Shown here in pieces: positions 5,638-58,736 of a stretch of 64,000 nucleotides of DNA (positions are counted from its first letter, which is position 1; every line of letters starts with the position of its first letter). The stretch covers positions 2,114 through 66,113 of the forward strand of contig CAZMXG010000008.1 of NCBI GenBank assembly GCA_964570175.1, written 5' to 3'. The DNA comes from an uncultured Heliomicrobium sp. GTDB lineage: Bacteria > Acidobacteriota > Blastocatellia > RBC074. Position numbers and translations under genes: made by a program. Below the pieces are notes generated by a model. That model had not been told where the DNA came from. It was given only the letters and a program-made list of their open reading frames with translations, and ran no database searches.

Positions 5638-5770
5638 GTTTCAACGCAAAGACGCCAAGGTTCAAAGGCGCAAAGAACTTTTGGAAAGACGTTCGCCATG
5701 CCTCAAAATTTTACCAGATCATGCTTTGCGTCTTTGCGTCTTTGCTACTTCGCAGCTTTGCGTTTTGAAG
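5638..5770. repeat. Hairpin element with arms made of GCAAAGA/TCTTTGC-type short repeats
   Basis: Left arm: tttcaacgcaaagacgccaaggttcaaaggcgcaaagaac. Right arm: gctttgcgtctttgcgtctttgctacttcgcagctttgcgttttgaag. The ends (tttcaacgcaaag and ctttgcgttttgaa) are complementary. It lies in the spacer between two minus-strand genes. Confidence 0.5.
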
Positions 5771-5776
5771 TGCAGA

Positions 5777-6661
5777 TTATGGTTTCAGCAAGCCTAAATC
5801 GGCCATCCATTCCTGAAATCGGATGTGCCATGTCCCGAATGGAATGCCGCCACGTGGTTTGATGCCGCCAGCATGTCCGCCGTGGCTGTAAATGTGAAGC
5901 TCGACGGGCACCTCGGCTTTGAACAGCGAATTGTAAAATTCGACCGTTTGCCGCGCGTGAAAAGCATCGTCCAATCCGGCGCTGGTTAGAAACGCCGGAG
6001 CCCCGTCTTTTGGCGCAGTAATGTCCATCGGCGCCCAACCGGCGTACACCAGACCGACGAAATCCGGGCGGCAGCTTTGTTGTTCAATCGGATCGGTCGC
6101 GTCCGCTTTGCCGCGATCAAAGCGAATATCAGCCAGCGCCGCCAGCGCTCCGCCAGCCGAAAATCCCATCAAACCAACGCGTGTTGGATTGATGTTCCAT
6201 TCCTGGGCGCGCTGGCGAACAATGCGGATGGCGCGTTGCGTATCCTGCAAAGCTTCGCCTTCCACGGTGTATTTGTAATTCGGTGTTTGCGCCAACCGAT
6301 ATTTCAAAACGAATACCGACACGCCCAAACTGTGCAGCCAATCAATCAAATCGTAGCTTTCCGTGCCGGTGTTCAATTCGCGATGGCCCCCGCCCGCTGC
6401 GAGTATCAAAGCAGTCCCGTTCGCTTTCTCTTTGGGAGCCGGGAAGACCTCAAGCGACGGGTTGTGGATGTTTTTGAATTGCCGCACGAACTGGCCCGGT
6501 TTGGGATCTGGGGGATTGGTAATTTCCTTTTCGTTTACGCCCTGCAGCGTCGGATGACCGGCAGGCCACAGGTAAATTACCTGCGGGGTCAGTTCGTTGG
6601 CAGTCGCCAGAGAAGCGAGCCAGAAGAGCGCTAGCATGGACAGTAACTGCCTGTGATGCAT
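5777..6661 (-). CDS. Secreted alpha/beta hydrolase (esterase/lipase type)
   Basis: Contains GFSAGGALAA (GxSxG) and LAAGGGH (HGGG-like), plus a signal peptide. The first codon in the track is TTG; an ATG two codons downstream (6661) is preceded by AAAGGA. Confidence 0.75.
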   Translation of the reverse strand: MHHRQLLSMLALFWLASLATANELTPQVIYLWPAGHPTLQGVNEKEITNPPDPKPGQFVRQFKNIHNPSLEVFPAPKEKANGTALILAAGGGHRELNTGTESYDLIDWLHSLGVSVFVLKYRLAQTPNYKYTVEGEALQDTQRAIRIVRQRAQEWNINPTRVGLMGFSAGGALAALADIRFDRGKADATDPIEQQSCRPDFVGLVYAGWAPMDITAPKDGAPAFLTSAGLDDAFHARQTVEFYNSLFKAEVPVELHIYSHGGHAGGIKPRGGIPFGTWHIRFQEWMADLGLLKP

Positions 6662-25803: not shown

Positions 25804-26667
25804 ATGCATTGCCCTTCGCTCAAAGAACTTCCGACTGCGCCCGCTGGTTGCACGGGATGGCCGTGGACGGAAGCTCAGCCGAACCCTTCCGTCGCCGACG
25901 CTTCTTTGCTGCCGAAAATCAGCGTCATCACGCCTTCGTTTAATCAAGCCGGATTCCTGGAGCAGACAATTCGCTCCGTCTTGCTGCAAAATTATCCCAA
26001 CCTGGAATACATCATCATGGATGGCGGCAGCATGGATGACAGCGCGGACATCATTCGGCGCTACGAACGCTGGCTGGCGCACTGGGTCAGCGAACCGGAC
26101 AAGGGGCAAAGCCAGGCAATCAATCGCGGTTTGGCAAAAGCCATGGGCGATGTGATGTGCTGGCTGAACAGTGACGATTACTTTTTGCCGCACACACTGA
26201 TGACGGTCGGGAGAATGCTTGCCGATGGTAGCGGCAATTTCGCTCTGGCGGGCCATTGTTTGCGAATCAATGGCGATGGAGTGCCGCCGGTTTTTCTTCG
26301 CGGGCGCTACCGTAACCGGCAGCGGTTGCTGGAGTTTTGGAAGGGCTACGAAATGCATCAGCCGGCGATTTTCTGGCGGCGCGAAGCCTTTGAAAAGGTG
26401 GGTTGGCTGGACGAATCGCTGCACTTGATTATGGATTTTGATTACTGGACGCGCATCGCCCGGCATTACGATTTCGTCAATGTTGATCAAGTGCTGGCTT
26501 GCTGCAATTACCACGAAGCGGCGAAAACCGGCGACGAATACGCCGCCTATTATCGCGATCTGGAAAAGCGCGCTCGAAAATATTGGCCGTCAATCTGGTC
26601 GCCGGAGCGCTGGCAACTGGAGCTTTCGATGTTTCGCAACTTGACGCTTGGAGGGCAGCGGGATTGA
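25804..26667 (+). CDS. Glycosyltransferase family 2 (GT-A)
   Basis: Contains ISVITPSFNQAGFLEQTIRSVLLQNYPNLEYIIMDGGSMDDS...WLNSDDYF. Confidence 0.85.
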   Translation: MHCPSLKELPTAPAGCTGWPWTEAQPNPSVADASLLPKISVITPSFNQAGFLEQTIRSVLLQNYPNLEYIIMDGGSMDDSADIIRRYERWLAHWVSEPDKGQSQAINRGLAKAMGDVMCWLNSDDYFLPHTLMTVGRMLADGSGNFALAGHCLRINGDGVPPVFLRGRYRNRQRLLEFWKGYEMHQPAIFWRREAFEKVGWLDESLHLIMDFDYWTRIARHYDFVNVDQVLACCNYHEAAKTGDEYAAYYRDLEKRARKYWPSIWSPERWQLELSMFRNLTLGGQRD

Positions 26668-27554
26668 TCGGGCAAACCGACAAGGCAAACGTTTCCGTCG
26701 TTGTCCCGGTGTACAACGGCGAAGCGACTATTTCACAAACGGTTGAATGCTTACTTCAACAAAGCTTGGCTCCGCGCGAAATTATCGTTATTGACGATGG
26801 TTCGACTGACCGAACTGCCGACGTGTTAAAGCCCTTTGCCAACCAAATCCTGTACACGTTCAAAGAGAATGGCGGACCAGCTTCGGCGCGAAATCTAGGC
26901 GTGAAGTTGGCGAGTGGCGACTTTGTTGCTTTCACCGACAGCGACTGTTTGCCGGAACGTGACTGGCTGCGAGAGCTTGTTGCCGCATTTGATTCTGATG
27001 AAATTGCCGGAGTCGGTGGCGCGGTAAAAGGCATTGACGATGGACACATTGGCCAGTACGTAGATGCGATGAGATTGATGGAACCGGCTGAAAATCAATT
27101 TGGGGAAATTGAATACTTGATTACAGCTAACGCCTGTTTTCGTCGAGATGCTTTGCTCGCCGTTGGTTTGTTTGACGAACGGTTTCGCAAACCGGGCGGC
27201 GAAGAACCTGCGTTGTGTCGCCAAATCCGGGAGCTTGGGTTTCGCTTTGATTTTGCCGAAGATGCCGTTGTCTTGCATCACCACCGTCAAACGATCAAAA
27301 GCTTTTTACGCACGCTCAGCAATTACGGTGAAGGGCGATTCTTGCTCGGCCAGCTCTGGCCCGAATATCAAATCCAGCGGCCACGACGCGCGTTTTTCAG
27401 GCAGATGATTGCGCTGCGCTCGCTGGTGCAACGATATTCGGGGTACAGCAGAAGCTACGACACAGAGCAGGCATTTCTGTTTTCTTCGCTGGATTATCTG
27501 CGGGAATTGGCGTTTTTGTGGGGATACCTGCGCGGTCAGCGATATGCAGCCTAA
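26664..27554 (+). CDS. Glycosyltransferase family 2
   Basis: Contains VSVVVPVYNGEATI...IIVIDDGSTDRT...ENGGPASARNLG...AFTDSDC. I place the start at TTG 26664 (a TTGA overlap with the upstream stop); this is uncertain. The track start (26499) overlaps the previous gene by 169 nt. Confidence 0.75.
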   Translation: MIGQTDKANVSVVVPVYNGEATISQTVECLLQQSLAPREIIVIDDGSTDRTADVLKPFANQILYTFKENGGPASARNLGVKLASGDFVAFTDSDCLPERDWLRELVAAFDSDEIAGVGGAVKGIDDGHIGQYVDAMRLMEPAENQFGEIEYLITANACFRRDALLAVGLFDERFRKPGGEEPALCRQIRELGFRFDFAEDAVVLHHHRQTIKSFLRTLSNYGEGRFLLGQLWPEYQIQRPRRAFFRQMIALRSLVQRYSGYSRSYDTEQAFLFSSLDYLRELAFLWGYLRGQRYAA

Positions 27555-28521
27555 AGTCAGTGTCATCATTCCGGCTTACAATGTAGCGCCGTTTATCGCC
27601 GCGACCCTTCGCAGTGCGCTGGGGCAGACTTATGGCAATTGCGAAGTGATCGTCGTTGATGATGGCTCTACCGACACAACGTTGGAGGAAATTTTCTTCT
27701 CCACGAAGGCACACGAAGATTCACGAAGAAAACCGGAAACATCTATTGCTGGCTTCGTGTCTTCTTCGTGTGACTTCGTGGAAAAATCAGTTCGAGTTTT
27801 TAGCAAATCCAATGGCGGCCCTGCTTCGGCCAGAAACCTGGCGATCAAGAATTCGCGCGGAAAGTACATTGCCTTTCTGGATGGCGATGATTTGTGGATG
27901 CCCGGCAAGCTGGCTGAACAAGTCGAGTTTTTGGAACGTAACCCGGGAGTCGGAATGGTTTTTGCCGAAGCCGCGACTTTTACTGAGCAAAACGACCAAA
28001 AAGAGTTTCGGGGAAAAATTGGTTACACCGGAGAAACTTCGTTTTGCTATTTGCTGCTGGGCGATCACATTCCGAATTCGACGGTGATGATTCGCCGCGA
28101 ATGCGTAGACAAAATTGGGTTGCTGAATGAAAGCCGCGAACTGATCGCCGTCGAAGATTACGAATACTGGCTGCGACTGGCGCGCGCTTTCCCGATCAAA
28201 GGCATCACCAAGACAATGGCGTATTACCGAGTTCACGCAAACAACTTGATGGGTGAAGGCGAAGACATTGAGCGCGGATTGCGCTTGCCGCTGCTGGCCC
28301 TGAAGGAAGCTGAACGACTTTTTCCTGACTGCTGGCAACAATGCGACGTAGAAAGGGAAGTGCTGCTTGCTCGGTTGCACATTCGCGCCGGCTTTGCGTG
28401 GAAGCAGCGTGGTGAATGGAGAAAATGCCTGAAAAAGTTTCGTCAGGCGTTACAGCTTCGTTTTAACCTCAGAGTCATTCGCTGGATCGTCGCGGCAACT
28501 TTGCTCAAACGTTGGTCATAA
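27544..28521 (+). CDS. Glycosyltransferase family 2 carrying an in-frame 27-codon palindromic insertion
   Basis: MQPKVSVIIPAYNVAPFI...VIVVDDGSTDTT...[insertion]...SNGGPASARNLAI...AFLDGDD. The ATG at 27544 overlaps the upstream gene by 11 nt. Confidence 0.85.
   Translation: MQPKVSVIIPAYNVAPFIAATLRSALGQTYGNCEVIVVDDGSTDTTLEEIFFSTKAHEDSRRKPETSIAGFVSSSCDFVEKSVRVFSKSNGGPASARNLAIKNSRGKYIAFLDGDDLWMPGKLAEQVEFLERNPGVGMVFAEAATFTEQNDQKEFRGKIGYTGETSFCYLLLGDHIPNSTVMIRRECVDKIGLLNESRELIAVEDYEYWLRLARAFPIKGITKTMAYYRVHANNLMGEGEDIERGLRLPLLALKEAERLFPDCWQQCDVEREVLLARLHIRAGFAWKQRGEWRKCLKKFRQALQLRFNLRVIRWIVAATLLKRWS
27701..27781. repeat. 81-bp palindromic CACGAAG/CTTCGTG element, in-frame inside a GT2 gene (copy 1)
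   Basis: ccacgaaggcacacgaagattcacgaag-[24 nt]-cttcgtgtcttcttcgtgtgacttcgtgg. The arms are complementary apart from about 3 mismatches or indels. The length of 81 is 27 codons. It encodes STKAHEDSRRKPETSIAGFVSSSCDFVE. Confidence 0.75.
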
Positions 28522-29517
28522 ATGAATCAGCCATTGGTTTACATCATCATTTTGAACTTCAACGGCAGCCGCTGGTTGCAGCCTTGTCTGCAATCGCTGC
28601 GCATGACGGAGTACACGAACTTCAAAACCGTGCTGGTGGATAACGCTTCCAGCGACGACAGCGTCGAACTGGTGCGCGGCCAATTTCCTGAAGTCGAAAT
28701 CATCGTCAATTCGGAAAACCTGGGGTTTTCCGAAGGCAACAACGTCGCGATCCGAAAGGCTCTGGCTGAAGACGCTGATTACGTTGTTTTGCTAAACCCG
28801 GACACGAAAGTCACGCCACGATGGCTTAGTGAATTGATTGCGATTGGCGAGAAGGAAAAGGACGTTGGCATCCTCGGTGCAGTGCAACTGACTTATGACA
28901 GCGAAGAGTTCAACACTTGGACGAAGACTGCTTTAAGCCATCATCTCGATGAGCTTTCTTTATCTTCCACGAAGTCACACGAAGAAAACACGAAGGCTGA
29001 AACCGGCGATTCGTCTTTGCTTCGTGATGCTTCGTGTGACTTCGTGGGAAACCGAGATTGGGTTCCAGTCGAATGGGTCGAAGGCGCTTGTTTTGCCATC
29101 AAGCGCAAAGTCATAGAACAAGTTGGATTGCTTGATCCGATCTACTTCGCGTTTTACGAAGAAATTGATTTCTGCCGCCGAGCCGCTTTCCGTGGCTACA
29201 AAACCGCGCTTGTTCCGCGCAGCCGCATTCATCATTTTCGTGGCGGCAGTTGGGAAGCCAACGCCACCATCAAACGCCAACGAGATTACCGCTGTGATCG
29301 CAGCCAATTCATCTACAGCCTGACAGACCCGCGTCGTTCGATGGTGGCAAACTTAGGCTGGTATTTGAGGACGCTGGCGACAAAAACAAGCGAAGCCGTT
29401 CGTGCTTTTAGCTTGATAAAAGCCTGGGACTTGATACGAATCCAGGTTGAGTTACTCGGCACGCTGCCAAAGCTTACTAGCAAATGGCAGCGTGACCGAA
29501 GTAATTCATCTCAATAA
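28522..29517 (+). CDS. Glycosyltransferase family 2 (rhamnosyltransferase-like) carrying the same in-frame palindromic insertion
   Basis: Contains VYIIILNFNGSRWL...VLVDNASSDDS...NLGFSEGNN...LNPD...FAFYEEIDFCRR. Confidence 0.85.
   Translation: MNQPLVYIIILNFNGSRWLQPCLQSLRMTEYTNFKTVLVDNASSDDSVELVRGQFPEVEIIVNSENLGFSEGNNVAIRKALAEDADYVVLLNPDTKVTPRWLSELIAIGEKEKDVGILGAVQLTYDSEEFNTWTKTALSHHLDELSLSSTKSHEENTKAETGDSSLLRDASCDFVGNRDWVPVEWVEGACFAIKRKVIEQVGLLDPIYFAFYEEIDFCRRAAFRGYKTALVPRSRIHHFRGGSWEANATIKRQRDYRCDRSQFIYSLTDPRRSMVANLGWYLRTLATKTSEAVRAFSLIKAWDLIRIQVELLGTLPKLTSKWQRDRSNSSQ
28967..29047. repeat. 81-bp palindromic CACGAAG/CTTCGTG element, in-frame inside a GT2 gene (copy 2)
   Basis: ccacgaagtcacacgaagaaaacacgaagg-[22 nt]-gcttcgtgatgcttcgtgtgacttcgtgg. 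The outer 18 nt on each side are perfectly complementary. The length (81) and codon phase (element starts at codon position 2) match copy 1. Confidence 0.75.
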
Positions 29518-31970: not shown

Positions 31971-31974
31971 ATCT

Positions 31975-32045
31975 GACAGGATGAGCAGGATTTCTCAGGA
32001 TTAAGTAACAGAAAGAAATCCTGATTGAATCCTGCAAATCCTGTC
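31975..32045. repeat. Solo CAGGATT/AATCCTG hairpin element
   Basis: Left arm gacaggatgagcaggatttctcaggatt (31975-32002). Right arm aatcctgattgaatcctgcaaatcctgtc (32017-32045). About 23 of 28 positions pair. The left arm is 24/28 identical to the left arm at 42780-42807. Confidence 0.7.
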
Positions 32046-32064
32046 CATTGAAAGAAGGTCTGGA

Positions 32065-37031: not shown

Positions 37032-37643
37032 ATGACAGCTTTACCCGAAAGAAAACAGTCCCTAGAGGAATACCTTGATCTGCTGCACAAATCTGAGGAA
37101 CGTTTGGAGTATTTCGATGGTGAGGTTGTTTCGATGGCGGGTGGCAAGAAGTCGCATAATCGGGCAACTCGAAATATCAGCCGAAAATTAGGCGAGCTTC
37201 TTGACGGGAAACCTTGTGAAGTGTTCGACGGGAATCAGGCTGTGAAAACGATAAAAGCTCCGCCGTTTCGATTCCCGGATGCTTCGGTTGTATGTGGGGA
37301 GGCGATATTCGAAGAAATGCGCGGCCACGACATTCTGGTAAATCCGGTTTTGATTGTTGAGGTCTTGTCTCCTTCGACCAATGCCTTTGACCGCGATGTA
37401 AAATTTCTGGCATATCAGGAAATCCCCAGCTTCAAAGAGTATTTGCTGGTCGCATCTGAACGCGCGCACGTAATTCAGTACATTCGCCAAGCTGCTGGCG
37501 GTTGGTTGCGCCGCGATGTTATAGGGCTTGAAAGCCATGTGGTGCTTGAATCTGTCGGTGCATTACTGCAACTCAGTGACATTTATCGTATGGTTACATT
37601 TCCTGAGTCTGCATCTGATAGGCCCACTCTTGACCCAGCGTAA
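37032..37643 (+). CDS. Uma2 family (DUF820) PD-(D/E)XK-like endonuclease
   Basis: Contains [12 protein letters not shown]...PDASVVCG...[11 protein letters not shown]...D...K...[10 protein letters not shown], the family pattern. RBS AGGAGA. Confidence 0.8.
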
Positions 37644-47995: not shown

Positions 47996-48182
47996 AGCCC
48001 CAACGGGGCTGGATATGACAGCCCAGTGCAACGCACTGGGAACGAGAATCAAAAGATTGCACGAGCCCCAACGGGGCGAAATAACAAGGTTACCCATTTC
48101 GCCCTTTCAGGGCTTTGGGGCCATCCCATTGCTTACCCGGCGCGTCGCACCGGGCTGCTGCATTTTGCCCCCTTGGGGCTGA
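47996..48182. repeat. About 185-nt nested imperfect palindrome (structured REP/MITE-like element), copy 2
   Basis: Terminal hairpins are cagccccaacggggctg and gcccccttggggctg. atatgacagcccagtg pairs with caccgggctgctgcat. The central hairpin is gccccaacggggcgaaat...atttcgccctttcagggc. The layout matches 1564-1748, with many compensating differences. Confidence 0.6.
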
Positions 48183-48195
48183 ACAATTACAAAAC

Positions 48196-49053
48196 ATGCA
48201 CCAGATCATCTTCATACTGTTGTTGGCAACTTTTGCGTTTGCCCAGCAATCGCAAAACCCTTCACCGATGGTTGAACACACGCGAGCGCATCCGCGATTG
48301 AAGCAGGAAACTGCTGAAGGTCGCCGCGAGAAGTTGGAACTCGGAACTTTGTTTTTACCCGCCAAGCTCAAGCTGAAATCGCCAGTGCCTTTGTTCATCC
48401 ACTTTCACGGCGGAACCTGGCTGCCGGAAGTCGCGGCGGAGAAGGCAGGCAAAACCGCCGTTATCTTCATTCAAATCGGAGCCGGTTCGTCGGTTTACGC
48501 GCGGCCGTTTGCGGATGCGCAATTGTTCGCTCGGCTGATTGCCGAAGCCGAAGCCAAAGCGGGGGTGAAGTTTGGGCCGATCAGTTTGACTTCCTGGAGT
48601 GCTGGATACGGCGCGGTGCGGGCAATTCTGAAAGTGCCGGAGCATTACGCGCGGGTGGATAAAGTCTTGTTGATTGATGGCTTACACGCGGGATACGTGG
48701 GCGGGAAGCCGGGAACTGGCAAATCACTGGAATCGGAATTGGAAGCGGGTGATTTGGACATCTTTCTGAAGTTTGCGCGGGATGCGGTTGCTGGGCGAAA
48801 GCGGTTGATCATCACGCATTCCGAAATTTTTCCGGGAACGTTTGCCAGCACGACGGAAACAGCGGATTGGCTGTTGGCTCAGTTAGCATTGAAACGAACG
48901 GCTGTGGTGAAGTGGGGGCCGATGCAAACGCAGCAATTGAGTGAAGCAAAGGCAGGGAAGTTTTGGCTGATGGGCTTTGCGGGGAACTCCGCGCCGGATC
49001 ACGTGGATCAACTGCATTCGCTACCGGAGTATTTGAACTGGCTGAGGAAATAA
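48196..49053 (+). CDS. Secreted hypothetical protein, possibly alpha/beta-hydrolase-like
   Basis: MHQIIFILLLATFAFAQQ is a signal peptide. IHFHGG and SWSAGYG are esterase-like motifs. The track start (48115) lies inside the repeat element, so I chose the ATG at 48196. Confidence 0.5.
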   Translation: MHQIIFILLLATFAFAQQSQNPSPMVEHTRAHPRLKQETAEGRREKLELGTLFLPAKLKLKSPVPLFIHFHGGTWLPEVAAEKAGKTAVIFIQIGAGSSVYARPFADAQLFARLIAEAEAKAGVKFGPISLTSWSAGYGAVRAILKVPEHYARVDKVLLIDGLHAGYVGGKPGTGKSLESELEAGDLDIFLKFARDAVAGRKRLIITHSEIFPGTFASTTETADWLLAQLALKRTAVVKWGPMQTQQLSEAKAGKFWLMGFAGNSAPDHVDQLHSLPEYLNWLRK

Positions 49054-58076: not shown

Positions 58077-58736
58077 ATGAGCACACCGCAAGCAAAACTC
58101 GTCAGCTATTTTACCGAAGAAGAGTATCTGGCTATGGAACGTGCCTCGGACGTGAAGCACGAATATCTTGATGGCAAGATTTATGCGATGGCCGGGGAAA
58201 TGCCCGCTCACGGCAGGATCAGCGTGAATCTTGTGATTGAGATTGGCAATCAGCTAAAGGGCACTCAGTGCGAGGTTTTTACCAAGGACACAAAAGTTCG
58301 CAGTGGCCCCGATCCCAAACCGCTTTGGCCGCCGAAAGGACTGTTTTCTTATCCGGACGTTGTGCTCCTTTGCGGCGAAGCGAAGTATCACGACCATTAC
58401 CGCGACGTTCTGCTCAACCCAAAAGTCATCATAGAAGTTTTGTCAGAAGGAACAGCCGAATATGATTTCAGCGAAAAGTTTCGGCGCTACCGCGAGTGGT
58501 TGCCTTCGTTGAGTAATTACATTCTGGTTTCCTCGCTCGAAACCATGATCGAACATTACCGCAGACAGCCGAACAACGACTGGCTGCTGTCAACATTAAC
58601 AAGCCCCGAAGCCATTTTGACGATTGAATCGGCCGGCTGCACGGTAAAACTGAGCGATATTTATGCCCGCGTTGAATTCCAGCAACCACAAATCGAACAA
58701 GATGACGCAGAGTCCATCCAACCAGAATCACAATGA
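58077..58736 (+). CDS. Uma2 family (DUF820) endonuclease, second copy
   Basis: Contains EYLDGKIYAMAGE...YPDVVLLCG...KVIIEVLSEGTAEYDFSEKFRRYREWLPSLSNYILV. RBS AAGGAGG. Confidence 0.8.
   Translation: MSTPQAKLVSYFTEEEYLAMERASDVKHEYLDGKIYAMAGEMPAHGRISVNLVIEIGNQLKGTQCEVFTKDTKVRSGPDPKPLWPPKGLFSYPDVVLLCGEAKYHDHYRDVLLNPKVIIEVLSEGTAEYDFSEKFRRYREWLPSLSNYILVSSLETMIEHYRRQPNNDWLLSTLTSPEAILTIESAGCTVKLSDIYARVEFQQPQIEQDDAESIQPESQ

Follow-up and report, generated by a model that had tools for sequence, protein, structure and literature searches.

The window analysed here, a stretch of 64,000 nucleotides (nt) from contig CAZMXG010000008.1 of an uncultured Heliomicrobium sp. assembly (GCA_964570175.1), contains two adjacent genes for GT2 glycosyltransferases, each of which carries in frame an 81-nt palindromic element whose arms are built from the heptamer CACGAAG and its complement CTTCGTG. 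All coordinates are collected in Table 1. Copy 1 had been described in the initial annotation as a hairpin of exactly 81 bp with such arms, and both the sequence and its folding bear this out: it consists of CCACGAAGgcaCACGAAGattCACGAAG, a 24-nt loop and CTTCGTGtcttCTTCGTGtgaCTTCGTGG, and as RNA it forms a single hairpin of -40.9 kcal/mol (z -8.67; equalled by 0 of 200 shuffles). The corresponding values are -27.1 kcal/mol for copy 1 as DNA (z -8.77) and -44.3 kcal/mol for copy 2 as RNA (z -8.0); the suggested comparison with shuffled controls thus gave folds far better than the shuffles. When both copies are aligned in both orientations, no difference is seen in any of the six heptamers or in the outer 18-mer CCACGAAGnCACACGAAG, while spacers and loops vary. 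Heptamers are spaced at 10–11 nt in each arm. The arms are inverted copies of each other and represent terminal inverted repeats, with the terminal 18-mer being perfect in copy 2. The core starts with CCAC and finishes with GTGG, and the T-rich left flank of copy 1 has an A-rich counterpart at 27782–27787. Over the whole window CACGAAG and its complement occur 25 times (10.7 expected, shuffle maximum 19), 12 of these inside copies 1 and 2, and an nhmmer profile of the arm run over the 64 kb recovered four arms only, those of the two copies.

In gene 1 the element lies between the DDGSTD and NGGPASARN motifs, keeps the open reading frame (ORF) open and divides the match to PF00535 into two stretches, in agreement with the position first reported for it. 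Alignment likewise confirmed that both upstream GT2 paralogues have a short linker at this position. Each copy begins at the second position of a codon and encodes S-T-K (tCC ACG AAG). A distance of 1266 nt, or 422 codons, separates the two, and the second copy announced for the next gene indeed has the same length and phase as the first. The peptide had been counted as 27 codons; this holds for the net gain of 27 residues, whereas the peptide quoted has 28 residues, with the element touching 28 codons. An AlphaFold2 model of the gene 1 product, built with 24 orthologues, reached a mean predicted local distance difference test score (pLDDT) of 80.7. Residues 63–80 have a pLDDT <50 and are placed between helix 44–62 and strand 83–87. 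Structure prediction had been proposed as a check, and in the model the gene 1 segment is a disordered surface loop on the GT-A fold.

Table 1. Positions of the element copies, their host genes and hairpins of like design in the window.
Feature	Position	Strand	Remarks
Host gene 1, GT2 glycosyltransferase, 325 aa	27544..28521	+	Pfam PF00535, E = 1.2e-31; match split by insert
Host gene 2, GT2 glycosyltransferase, 331 aa	28522..29517	+	Pfam PF00535; orthologue alignment
Copy 1, 81-nt core hairpin	27701..27781	.	in frame within gene 1; peptide S53-E80 (STKAHEDSRRKPETSIAGFVSSSCDFVE)
Copy 1, left flank, T-rich (aattttcttct)	27690..27700	.	fits family flank consensus AAAAA..TTTTyNy, followed by CCACGAAG
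Copy 1, left arm, 3x CACGAAG	27702..27728	+	start-to-start spacing 10 and 10 nt
Copy 1, loop	27729..27752	.	inverted with inner spacers in orthologue L123
Copy 1, right arm, 3x CTTCGTG	27753..27780	+	
Copy 2, 81 nt	28967..29047	.	in frame within gene 2, codon phase as copy 1; peptide STKSHEENTKAETGDSSLLRDASCDFVG
Copy 2, left arm, 3x CACGAAG	28968..28995	+	
Copy 2, right arm, 3x CTTCGTG	29020..29046	+	
CAGGAT hairpin, 75 nt (3x CAGGAT, loop, 3x ATCCTG)	31973..32047	.	intergenic; DNA z -8.3
GCAAAG hairpin (about 4x (C)GCAAAG and CTTTGC(G))	5643..5766	.	intergenic; z -3.4

Filled, empty and remnant sites in the glycosyltransferase genes

Most of the 120 top-scoring homologues found for gene 1 have 299 aa, read ...TLxVLxxF-GxQIKVxxKxNGGPASARN and do not contain the segment; it is present only in the closest ones (P0002–P0004). 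A group of homologues of 306–307 aa keeps SSCDFVEK only; in their DNA the right arm or part of it is left (...acCTTCGTGccttCTTCGTGtgaCTTCGTGGaaaaa in locus L124, two heptamers in L125). Conservation of the segment in distant orthologues had been named as an argument against an insertion. Orthologues with 52–60% identity lack it and have the short ancestral linker in common. In the syntenic locus L120 the sites of both genes are empty. In L141, which is about 89% identical to the window at the DNA level, copy 1 is present with 80 of 81 identical positions, compared to 271 of 300 in the flanks, and the gene 2 site is empty (...gaactgcaacgcgaaaccgcgcgcaactgg...). The ancestral linker of gene 2 reads EL-QRETA-RDW, and orthologues with 60% identity have ELKRPESARAW. 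The window sequence reads EL-SLS[STK...DFVG]N-RDW and is thus exactly 27 aa longer than the ancestral form. A reading of the empty gene 2 site of L120 (LQRETARD) as a decayed right arm was rejected, since the latter orthologues share the short linker. The proposed alignment to orthologues and paralogues thus identifies the 27-residue segments as insertions.

According to our reading of short alignments, about four codons following the element are frame-shifted in both window genes relative to the empty allele, and the frame is restored by a deletion of 1 nt in gene 1 and of 4 nt in gene 2. Such a pattern would be expected if insertion ignored the frame and selection then favoured compensating changes. 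At the gene 2 site of L128 a CAGGAT module is found in the loop and the right arm is lost. Filled and empty alleles are interleaved in a neighbor-joining tree of gene 2, which is poorly resolved. The alleles show an element that entered the GT2 genes after their divergence from most orthologues and was later partly deleted, inverted and remodelled by lineage. A third GT2 paralogue, homologous to window positions 26499–27554, carries an in-frame copy in L127 (1294–1359) and L128 (944–1010), located in the same alpha2-beta3 loop as in gene 1; counting all lineages, the element has therefore reached three of the cluster's four tandem GT2 genes.

Furthermore, a 1.7-kb contig from Logan (SRR14610248; L139, positions 1–800, protein P0247) encodes an in-frame chimera of about the first 52 codons of gene 1, a hybrid CACGAAG element and the tail of gene 2 from RNWIPVEW onwards. 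It is known from this one contig of a k=31 assembly, and an assembly chimera is possible. Such a structure is the expected product of recombination between the two same-phase copies.

The wider family and its coding copies

Further copies were searched for, as had been suggested, by scanning one genome per species for the 18-mer CCACGAAGNCACACGAAG, a procedure that favours perfect 18-mers. The 18-mer was found in at least 119 loci or stretches; in 2 x 596 Gb, a pattern with 17 fixed bases should turn up about 70 times by chance. These loci contain at least 105 clusters with three or more heptamers, usually in the arrangement "+++---", in addition to the two in the window, and for this reason nearly all matches are considered real. 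The element is seen in independent assemblies from NCBI, ENA, JGI and Logan. Among the matches listed, to which all counts of carriers, complete elements and intragenic clusters refer, many carriers are Acidobacteriota (Blastocatellia, Pyrinomonadaceae, Terriglobia, Holophagaceae, Aminicenantes). Others belong to Chloroflexota (Caldilineaceae with 4–6 contigs per metagenome-assembled genome (MAG), Anaerolineae), to Syntrophobacteraceae, Desulfomonilaceae and a "delta proteobacterium", and to Kiritimatiellota, Sumerlaeota, Auribacterota and Planctomycetota. Copies are mainly intergenic, with truly intragenic clusters making up about 10%, and the family spans several phyla instead of being lineage-specific. 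A scan of IMG/VR yielded about four real elements, the remaining matches being chance coding matches, and revealed no phage-borne enzyme.

The 61 complete elements are 54–202 nt long, most commonly 81 nt. Short elements have a loop of 10–25 nt. Long ones contain a second, nested palindrome of GACAGGATT repeats or, in Chloroflexota, of CCACAGATT-type repeats. Three heptamers per arm are the rule (range 2–4). The outer consensus reads AAAAA..TTTTyNy-core-rNrAAAA..TTTTT, with GAAAAAnnTTTTTC on both sides in many copies and A5/T5 mini-palindromes outside the arms of full-length copies; extended terminal inverted repeats are found in L057. Clustering of the loops gave a modest excess of related pairs (10.6% vs 3.4% in shuffles).

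Two groups of carriers deserve separate mention. Terriglobia and "Versatilivorator" loci (L013, L022, L023, L025, L040, L053, L070, L072, L073, L078, L095, L096) feature a subfamily with a one-armed array CCACGAAGaCACACGAAGgacGACGAAGggCCACGAAG after a conserved ...GCCTGAAACAAC..AAAAAGAGTTAT, often together with the recurrent unit CCCTGTTTCACTCTCGAATGATCCGCCCGTCGTGGGGGCGGGGGC; none of these 12 loci matched Rfam. MAGs labelled "uncultured Heliomicrobium / Heliobacteriaceae" (binchicken; L002, L030, L037, L043, L050, L058, L074, L107, L109, L116, L118, L141) share near-identical syntenic loci with Blastocatellia MAGs (e.g. L028, L030, L035; L141 and the window with 89%), and because of this synteny the Heliomicrobium label is probably wrong. 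Judged by its best protein matches, the host of the window is Blastocatellia-like (Acidobacteriota).

Tabulating length modulo 3, we found non-coding cores distributed as 19:18:12, whereas 9 of 12 coding copies, or about 7 of 8 independent events, are 3n long. All six frames of CACGAAG are free of stop codons, and per frame 32–39 of the 61 whole elements are stop-free, compared to about 15 in shuffles. The usual coding frame reads S-T-K-x-H-E-E-N-T-K...L-R-x-x-S-C-D-F-V and is hydrophilic. It is used by window genes 1 and 2, by the third GT2 paralogue in L127 and L128 and in L033, L046 and L074, the other hosts comprising GT2, GT4, RqcH-like, 2Fe-2S and dehydrogenase proteins. A profile of the peptide gave 18 matches at E <= 1e-3 among 1.84 billion representative proteins; a 2Fe-2S protein, a dehydrogenase fusion and two GT4 enzymes were the real ones. 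Glycosyltransferases are over-represented among the hosts, which may reflect either target preference or tolerance. Judged by their lengths and frames, the coding copies are a subset filtered by selection for frame.

Heptamer conservation and the nature of the element

We compared which parts of the element remain constant between orthologous copies. In five orthologous gene 2 copies, the 15 third codon positions within heptamers yielded 4 differences in 150 pairwise comparisons, which all trace to one change in L126, while the flanking gene differs at 25–40% of its synonymous third positions. Between the window and L124 there are 0 differences at 42 heptamer positions and 11 at 37 positions of spacers and loop. 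Of 19 elements, only 4 have a spacer 2 that can pair between the arms, and its length often differs; the variable base of the 18-mer can pair in 25 of 61 elements (16.7 expected). Since spacers and loops vary and often fail to pair, the conserved object appears to be the phased heptamer and not a perfect stem, and conservation of heptamers at synonymous sites implies that something maintains them. In L123 the inner approximately 45 nt, i.e. inner spacers and loop, are inverted relative to the window (89% identity to the reverse complement), with outer heptamers and flanks being collinear. Recombination or template switching from one arm to the other would be expected to produce such a flip-flop. 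The maintained heptamers and the nearly identical copy 1 of L141 show that the element persists for long, with conserved sequence, at orthologous sites. These data also bear on the initial proposal of a selfish element that colonises coding sequence in the manner of Rickettsia palindromic elements (RPEs). The proposal is supported on the whole, RPE-like survival in frame being confirmed for at least 8 independent host genes. The term "selfish" is unsupported in view of the heptamers maintained at synonymous sites, and the family is mainly intergenic and extends over several phyla beyond this lineage.

In our view both 81-nt segments are probably copies of a non-autonomous palindromic dispersed repeat acting like a MITE (miniature inverted-repeat transposable element), a doublet of repetitive extragenic palindromes (REPIN) or an RPE, with the heptamers as putative iterons and with coding copies that were filtered for frame. 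The heptamers would serve as cooperative binding sites for a trans-acting, sequence-specific protein, namely the enzyme responsible for the element's mobilisation or maintenance; we infer iterons because the heptamers are constant, whereas spacers and loops are variable and the spacers usually non-complementary. The hairpin or cruciform would be used at the DNA level, which would explain the flip-flop inversion. Insertion would be blind to the reading frame and the coding copies would be survivors of selection, either 3n long or accompanied by nearby compensating indels, located in surface loops and read in a hydrophilic frame. Candidate enzymes are a serine transposase as in IS607, an HUH-Y1 enzyme such as the REP-associated tyrosine transposase (RAYT), or a DDE enzyme. 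The synonymous-site conservation and the recurrence across phyla offer a handle on the protein reading the heptamers, which may belong to a new or repurposed transposase family.

A number of observations weigh against a mobile repeat of this kind. Pfam searches found no transposase or recombinase domain in the approximately 47 ORFs of the window, and no recurrent transposase emerged near the at least 119 loci, where all-vs-all clustering of 2291 ORFs from 8-kb loci gave generic families only. The distant arm pairs of L052 and L131 enclose ordinary genes and no transposase; in L052 the arms are 1.7 kb apart with a pyridoxal phosphate enzyme between them. A k-mer search at fixed offsets of 0–30 in 59 elements found no target-site duplication. 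Conserved heptamers, and in L141 a conserved whole element, at orthologous sites are not predicted for a decaying selfish insert; gene conversion or a function in the host could account for them. There is no sign of recent movement: no two loci were seen to carry near-identical copies, the best non-orthologous pairs being about 84–86% identical, mostly through their arms, and local density is low with two copies in 64 kb. In addition, the patchy presence of the gene 2 copy may reflect recombination between alleles instead of repeated insertion, and all sequences used for comparison come from MAGs or metagenome contigs. A flexible search detected symmetric direct repeats of at least 6 nt, 12–24 nt outside the core, in 17 elements vs 8.6 in controls. 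Clean flanking direct repeats are present in L057 (AAGTTT), L080 (CTATAA), L041 (CTTCAA) and L055 (TATCGC), and the empty and filled window sites are compatible with a duplication of about 6 bp (AATCAA, GAAACC), short of proof.

An alternative that we regard as unlikely is a module serving the host. Here the heptamers would be read as operators by a DNA-binding protein of the host, or the hairpin would act in RNA, in mRNA stability or processing; host selection would keep the copies, and the intragenic ones would be internal sites of the GT2 operon. OmpR/PhoB-type response regulators, which bind 7-bp direct repeats at an 11-bp period, are an example of such a protein. Heptamer conservation at synonymous sites and the whole element of L141 being more conserved than its flanks argue for such a role, as do the many copies that closely follow stop codons or closely precede ribosome-binding sites or start codons, the use of one heptamer across phyla, and the non-complementary spacers, which let the motif count more than the stem. 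However, copies reside in unrelated genes and intergenic settings without a common neighbour, very close relatives with the same operon differ in whether they have the gene 2 copy, half remnants and rearranged copies are tolerated, and no Rfam family matches. A regulator site also leaves the arrival of a whole hairpin together with its A/T flanks at new loci unexplained.

The negative transposase searches are among the points in favour of spread or homogenisation independent of a dedicated transposase, by ectopic gene conversion, by microhomology-mediated template switching between hairpin-forming repeats at replication forks, or by homologous recombination of co-occurring strains that take up DNA. 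The flip-flop inversion shows that intramolecular template switching or recombination between arms takes place, the L139 contig resembles the outcome of deleting what lies between the two copies, the gene 2 tree mixes filled with empty alleles, and some junctions have short similarities between host and element flank (e.g. GAAACC, AATCA). We still consider this explanation rather improbable: arm homology extends over 18–28 nt at most, which is marginal for RecA-dependent conversion, new sites have no homology to the element beyond a few A/T bases, and conversion homogenises within a genome and would not hold one heptamer across phyla. That the segment is original to, or locally generated in, GT2 proteins, with incidental palindromy or an assembly artefact, might be argued from the peptide being kept in several lineages with intact ORFs. 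This view can practically be dismissed, since orthologues with 52–60% identity have the short ancestral linker instead of the segment and the same DNA occurs in unrelated genes, intergenic DNA and other phyla; the independent assemblies and a folding z of about -8 likewise speak against it.

Two further candidates were discarded. An intrinsic terminator was rejected because T-runs precede and A-runs follow the hairpin on both strands, the opposite of the terminator layout. The only Y1 transposase found in the loci, a 147-aa RAYT-like Y1_Tnp gene of L126 (6292–6735), was dropped as a lead because the REPs flanking it belong to another family: it is preceded at 5990–6300 by a GTAG-tagged REP pair, CAGCCCGTTTnnAACGGGCT + GCCAGCCGTTTGACGGCTGGTAGAC, which is repeated in four tandem units and unrelated to the CACGAAG element.

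Described repeats and other hairpins of the window

RPEs (Ogata et al. 2000, as reviewed in PMC10969869 and PMC3733652) are palindromic repeats of about 100–150 nt which lie in frame inside functional genes, are predicted to form surface-loop peptides and have no identified mobilising enzyme; in some families nearly half of the copies are intragenic. The CACGAAG element likewise is a palindromic dispersed repeat with some copies in frame in functional genes and a predicted surface-loop peptide, but it has typically 81 nt, is intragenic in about 10% and resides in free-living soil phyla instead of Rickettsia. Unlike RPEs, its arms consist of helically phased heptamers, a motif we do not know from any RPE. 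The likeness is thus one of behaviour, and the element is set apart in sequence as far as descriptions and our knowledge go.

REP sequences and REPINs associated with RAYTs are short palindromic repeats arranged as hairpin doublets, with several families per genome, persistence at orthologous sites and occasional intragenic copies (PMC3116915, PMC3733652, bioRxiv 10.1101/2021.07.10.451892). Hairpin doublets, conservation at orthologous sites, occasional copies within genes and several coexisting families were also found here. In contrast to REPs, the element has no GTAG or CGTC tag (its core reads CCAC...GTGG between T/A-rich flanks), and its arm is an array of three direct heptamers and not a single imperfect palindrome of 20–40 nt. 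A RAYT gene flanked by the element's own repeats was not found in the loci scanned. The ends of IS607-family elements carry helically phased short direct repeats bound cooperatively by serine-transposase dimers, lack terminal inverted repeats and target-site duplications, and are exchanged at GG (PMC6188088). Short direct repeats 10–11 bp apart near each end and inverted between the ends are shared with our element, whose core starts with CC and ends with GG. The empty gene 1 site has GG at the junction (tttGGcaat), the gene 2 site has none, and in the loci scanned no serine transposase or TnpB gene adjoins a copy. By analogy, the IS607 family would be the closest documented counterpart of the phased-repeat ends; we know of no IS607-derived MITE with this sequence.

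With classical MITEs the element has in common its small size, non-autonomy, terminal inverted repeats, a strong hairpin and occasional in-frame fusions. It differs in that target-site duplications are only weakly evidenced and that no parent insertion sequence was found in the 8-kb loci, the window or L052/L131. In-frame ORF fusion is known for RPEs, ERIC/YPAL, Coxiella QMITE1, Nezha and some REPs (PMC10969869, PMC3733652, PMC5896051). Descriptions of the ERIC/YPAL, QMITE1 and Nezha families mention neither an iteron architecture nor modular nesting, nor a heptamer conserved across phyla. Rfam at gathering thresholds gave no match across the window, with only sub-threshold miRNA-hairpin look-alikes for the element, and blastn in distant mode found no match in plasmid and phage collections. 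The literature likewise yielded no description: full-text matches of the heptamer came from unrelated papers, and the MITE and REP literature on Acidobacteria gave the same result. The earlier statement that no description was known therefore stands, and three-iteron arms, modular nesting and motif conservation across phyla are the features that separate the element from described families.

In-frame colonisation of genes resembling that of RPEs would extend to abundant free-living soil bacteria and not just to reduced intracellular genomes. The copies supply natural loop insertions of 27–45 residues tolerated by enzymes, and possibly gene fusion mediated by the element. They also have practical consequences, as the element inflates ORFs and splits Pfam matches, and 81-nt direct and inverted repeats can mislead assemblers and gene callers in MAGs of Acidobacteriota.

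Besides the CACGAAG copies, the window harbours the CAGGAT and GCAAAG hairpins of Table 1. The CAGGAT module is nested inside CACGAAG arms or loops at many loci (e.g. L041, L055, L089, L108, L128), and other loci contain arrays of CAGATT, CCGATT, CTGATTRG and ATTCGTG. We tentatively suggest, as a possibility that we would not yet favour, that the element belongs, as one family, to a wider and as yet undescribed class of hairpins with iteron arms, with three phased heptamers per arm and several nesting specificities (CACGAAG, CAGGAT, GCAAAG, CAGATT), distributed over Acidobacteriota, Chloroflexota, Desulfobacterota, Kiritimatiellota and Planctomycetota and with motifs under purifying selection even at synonymous sites. 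If so, the class would imply dedicated sequence-specific protein partners in a lasting association of element and enzyme, similar to REPIN-RAYT but mechanistically distinct, and new protein loops would arise from it, as would gene fusions of the kind represented by the gene1::gene2 chimera of L139.

Further features of the window are of a different kind. Two Uma2 genes (PF05685, PD-(D/E)XK "putative restriction endonuclease") are located at 37032–37643 and 58077–58736, and one is also present in the syntenic locus L120. An intergenic nested long hairpin of about 240 nt at 1535–1780 has an RNA minimum free energy of -129.9 kcal/mol (z -10.8), and its arm at 1563–1608 on the minus strand scores 35.8 bits to the Rfam family Acido-Lenti-1 (gathering score 37, E = 2.3e-6). 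Finally, three REP-like hairpins with a common AGCCCCAACGGGGCGAAAT lie at 48064–48180, upstream of the ORF at 48115–49053.

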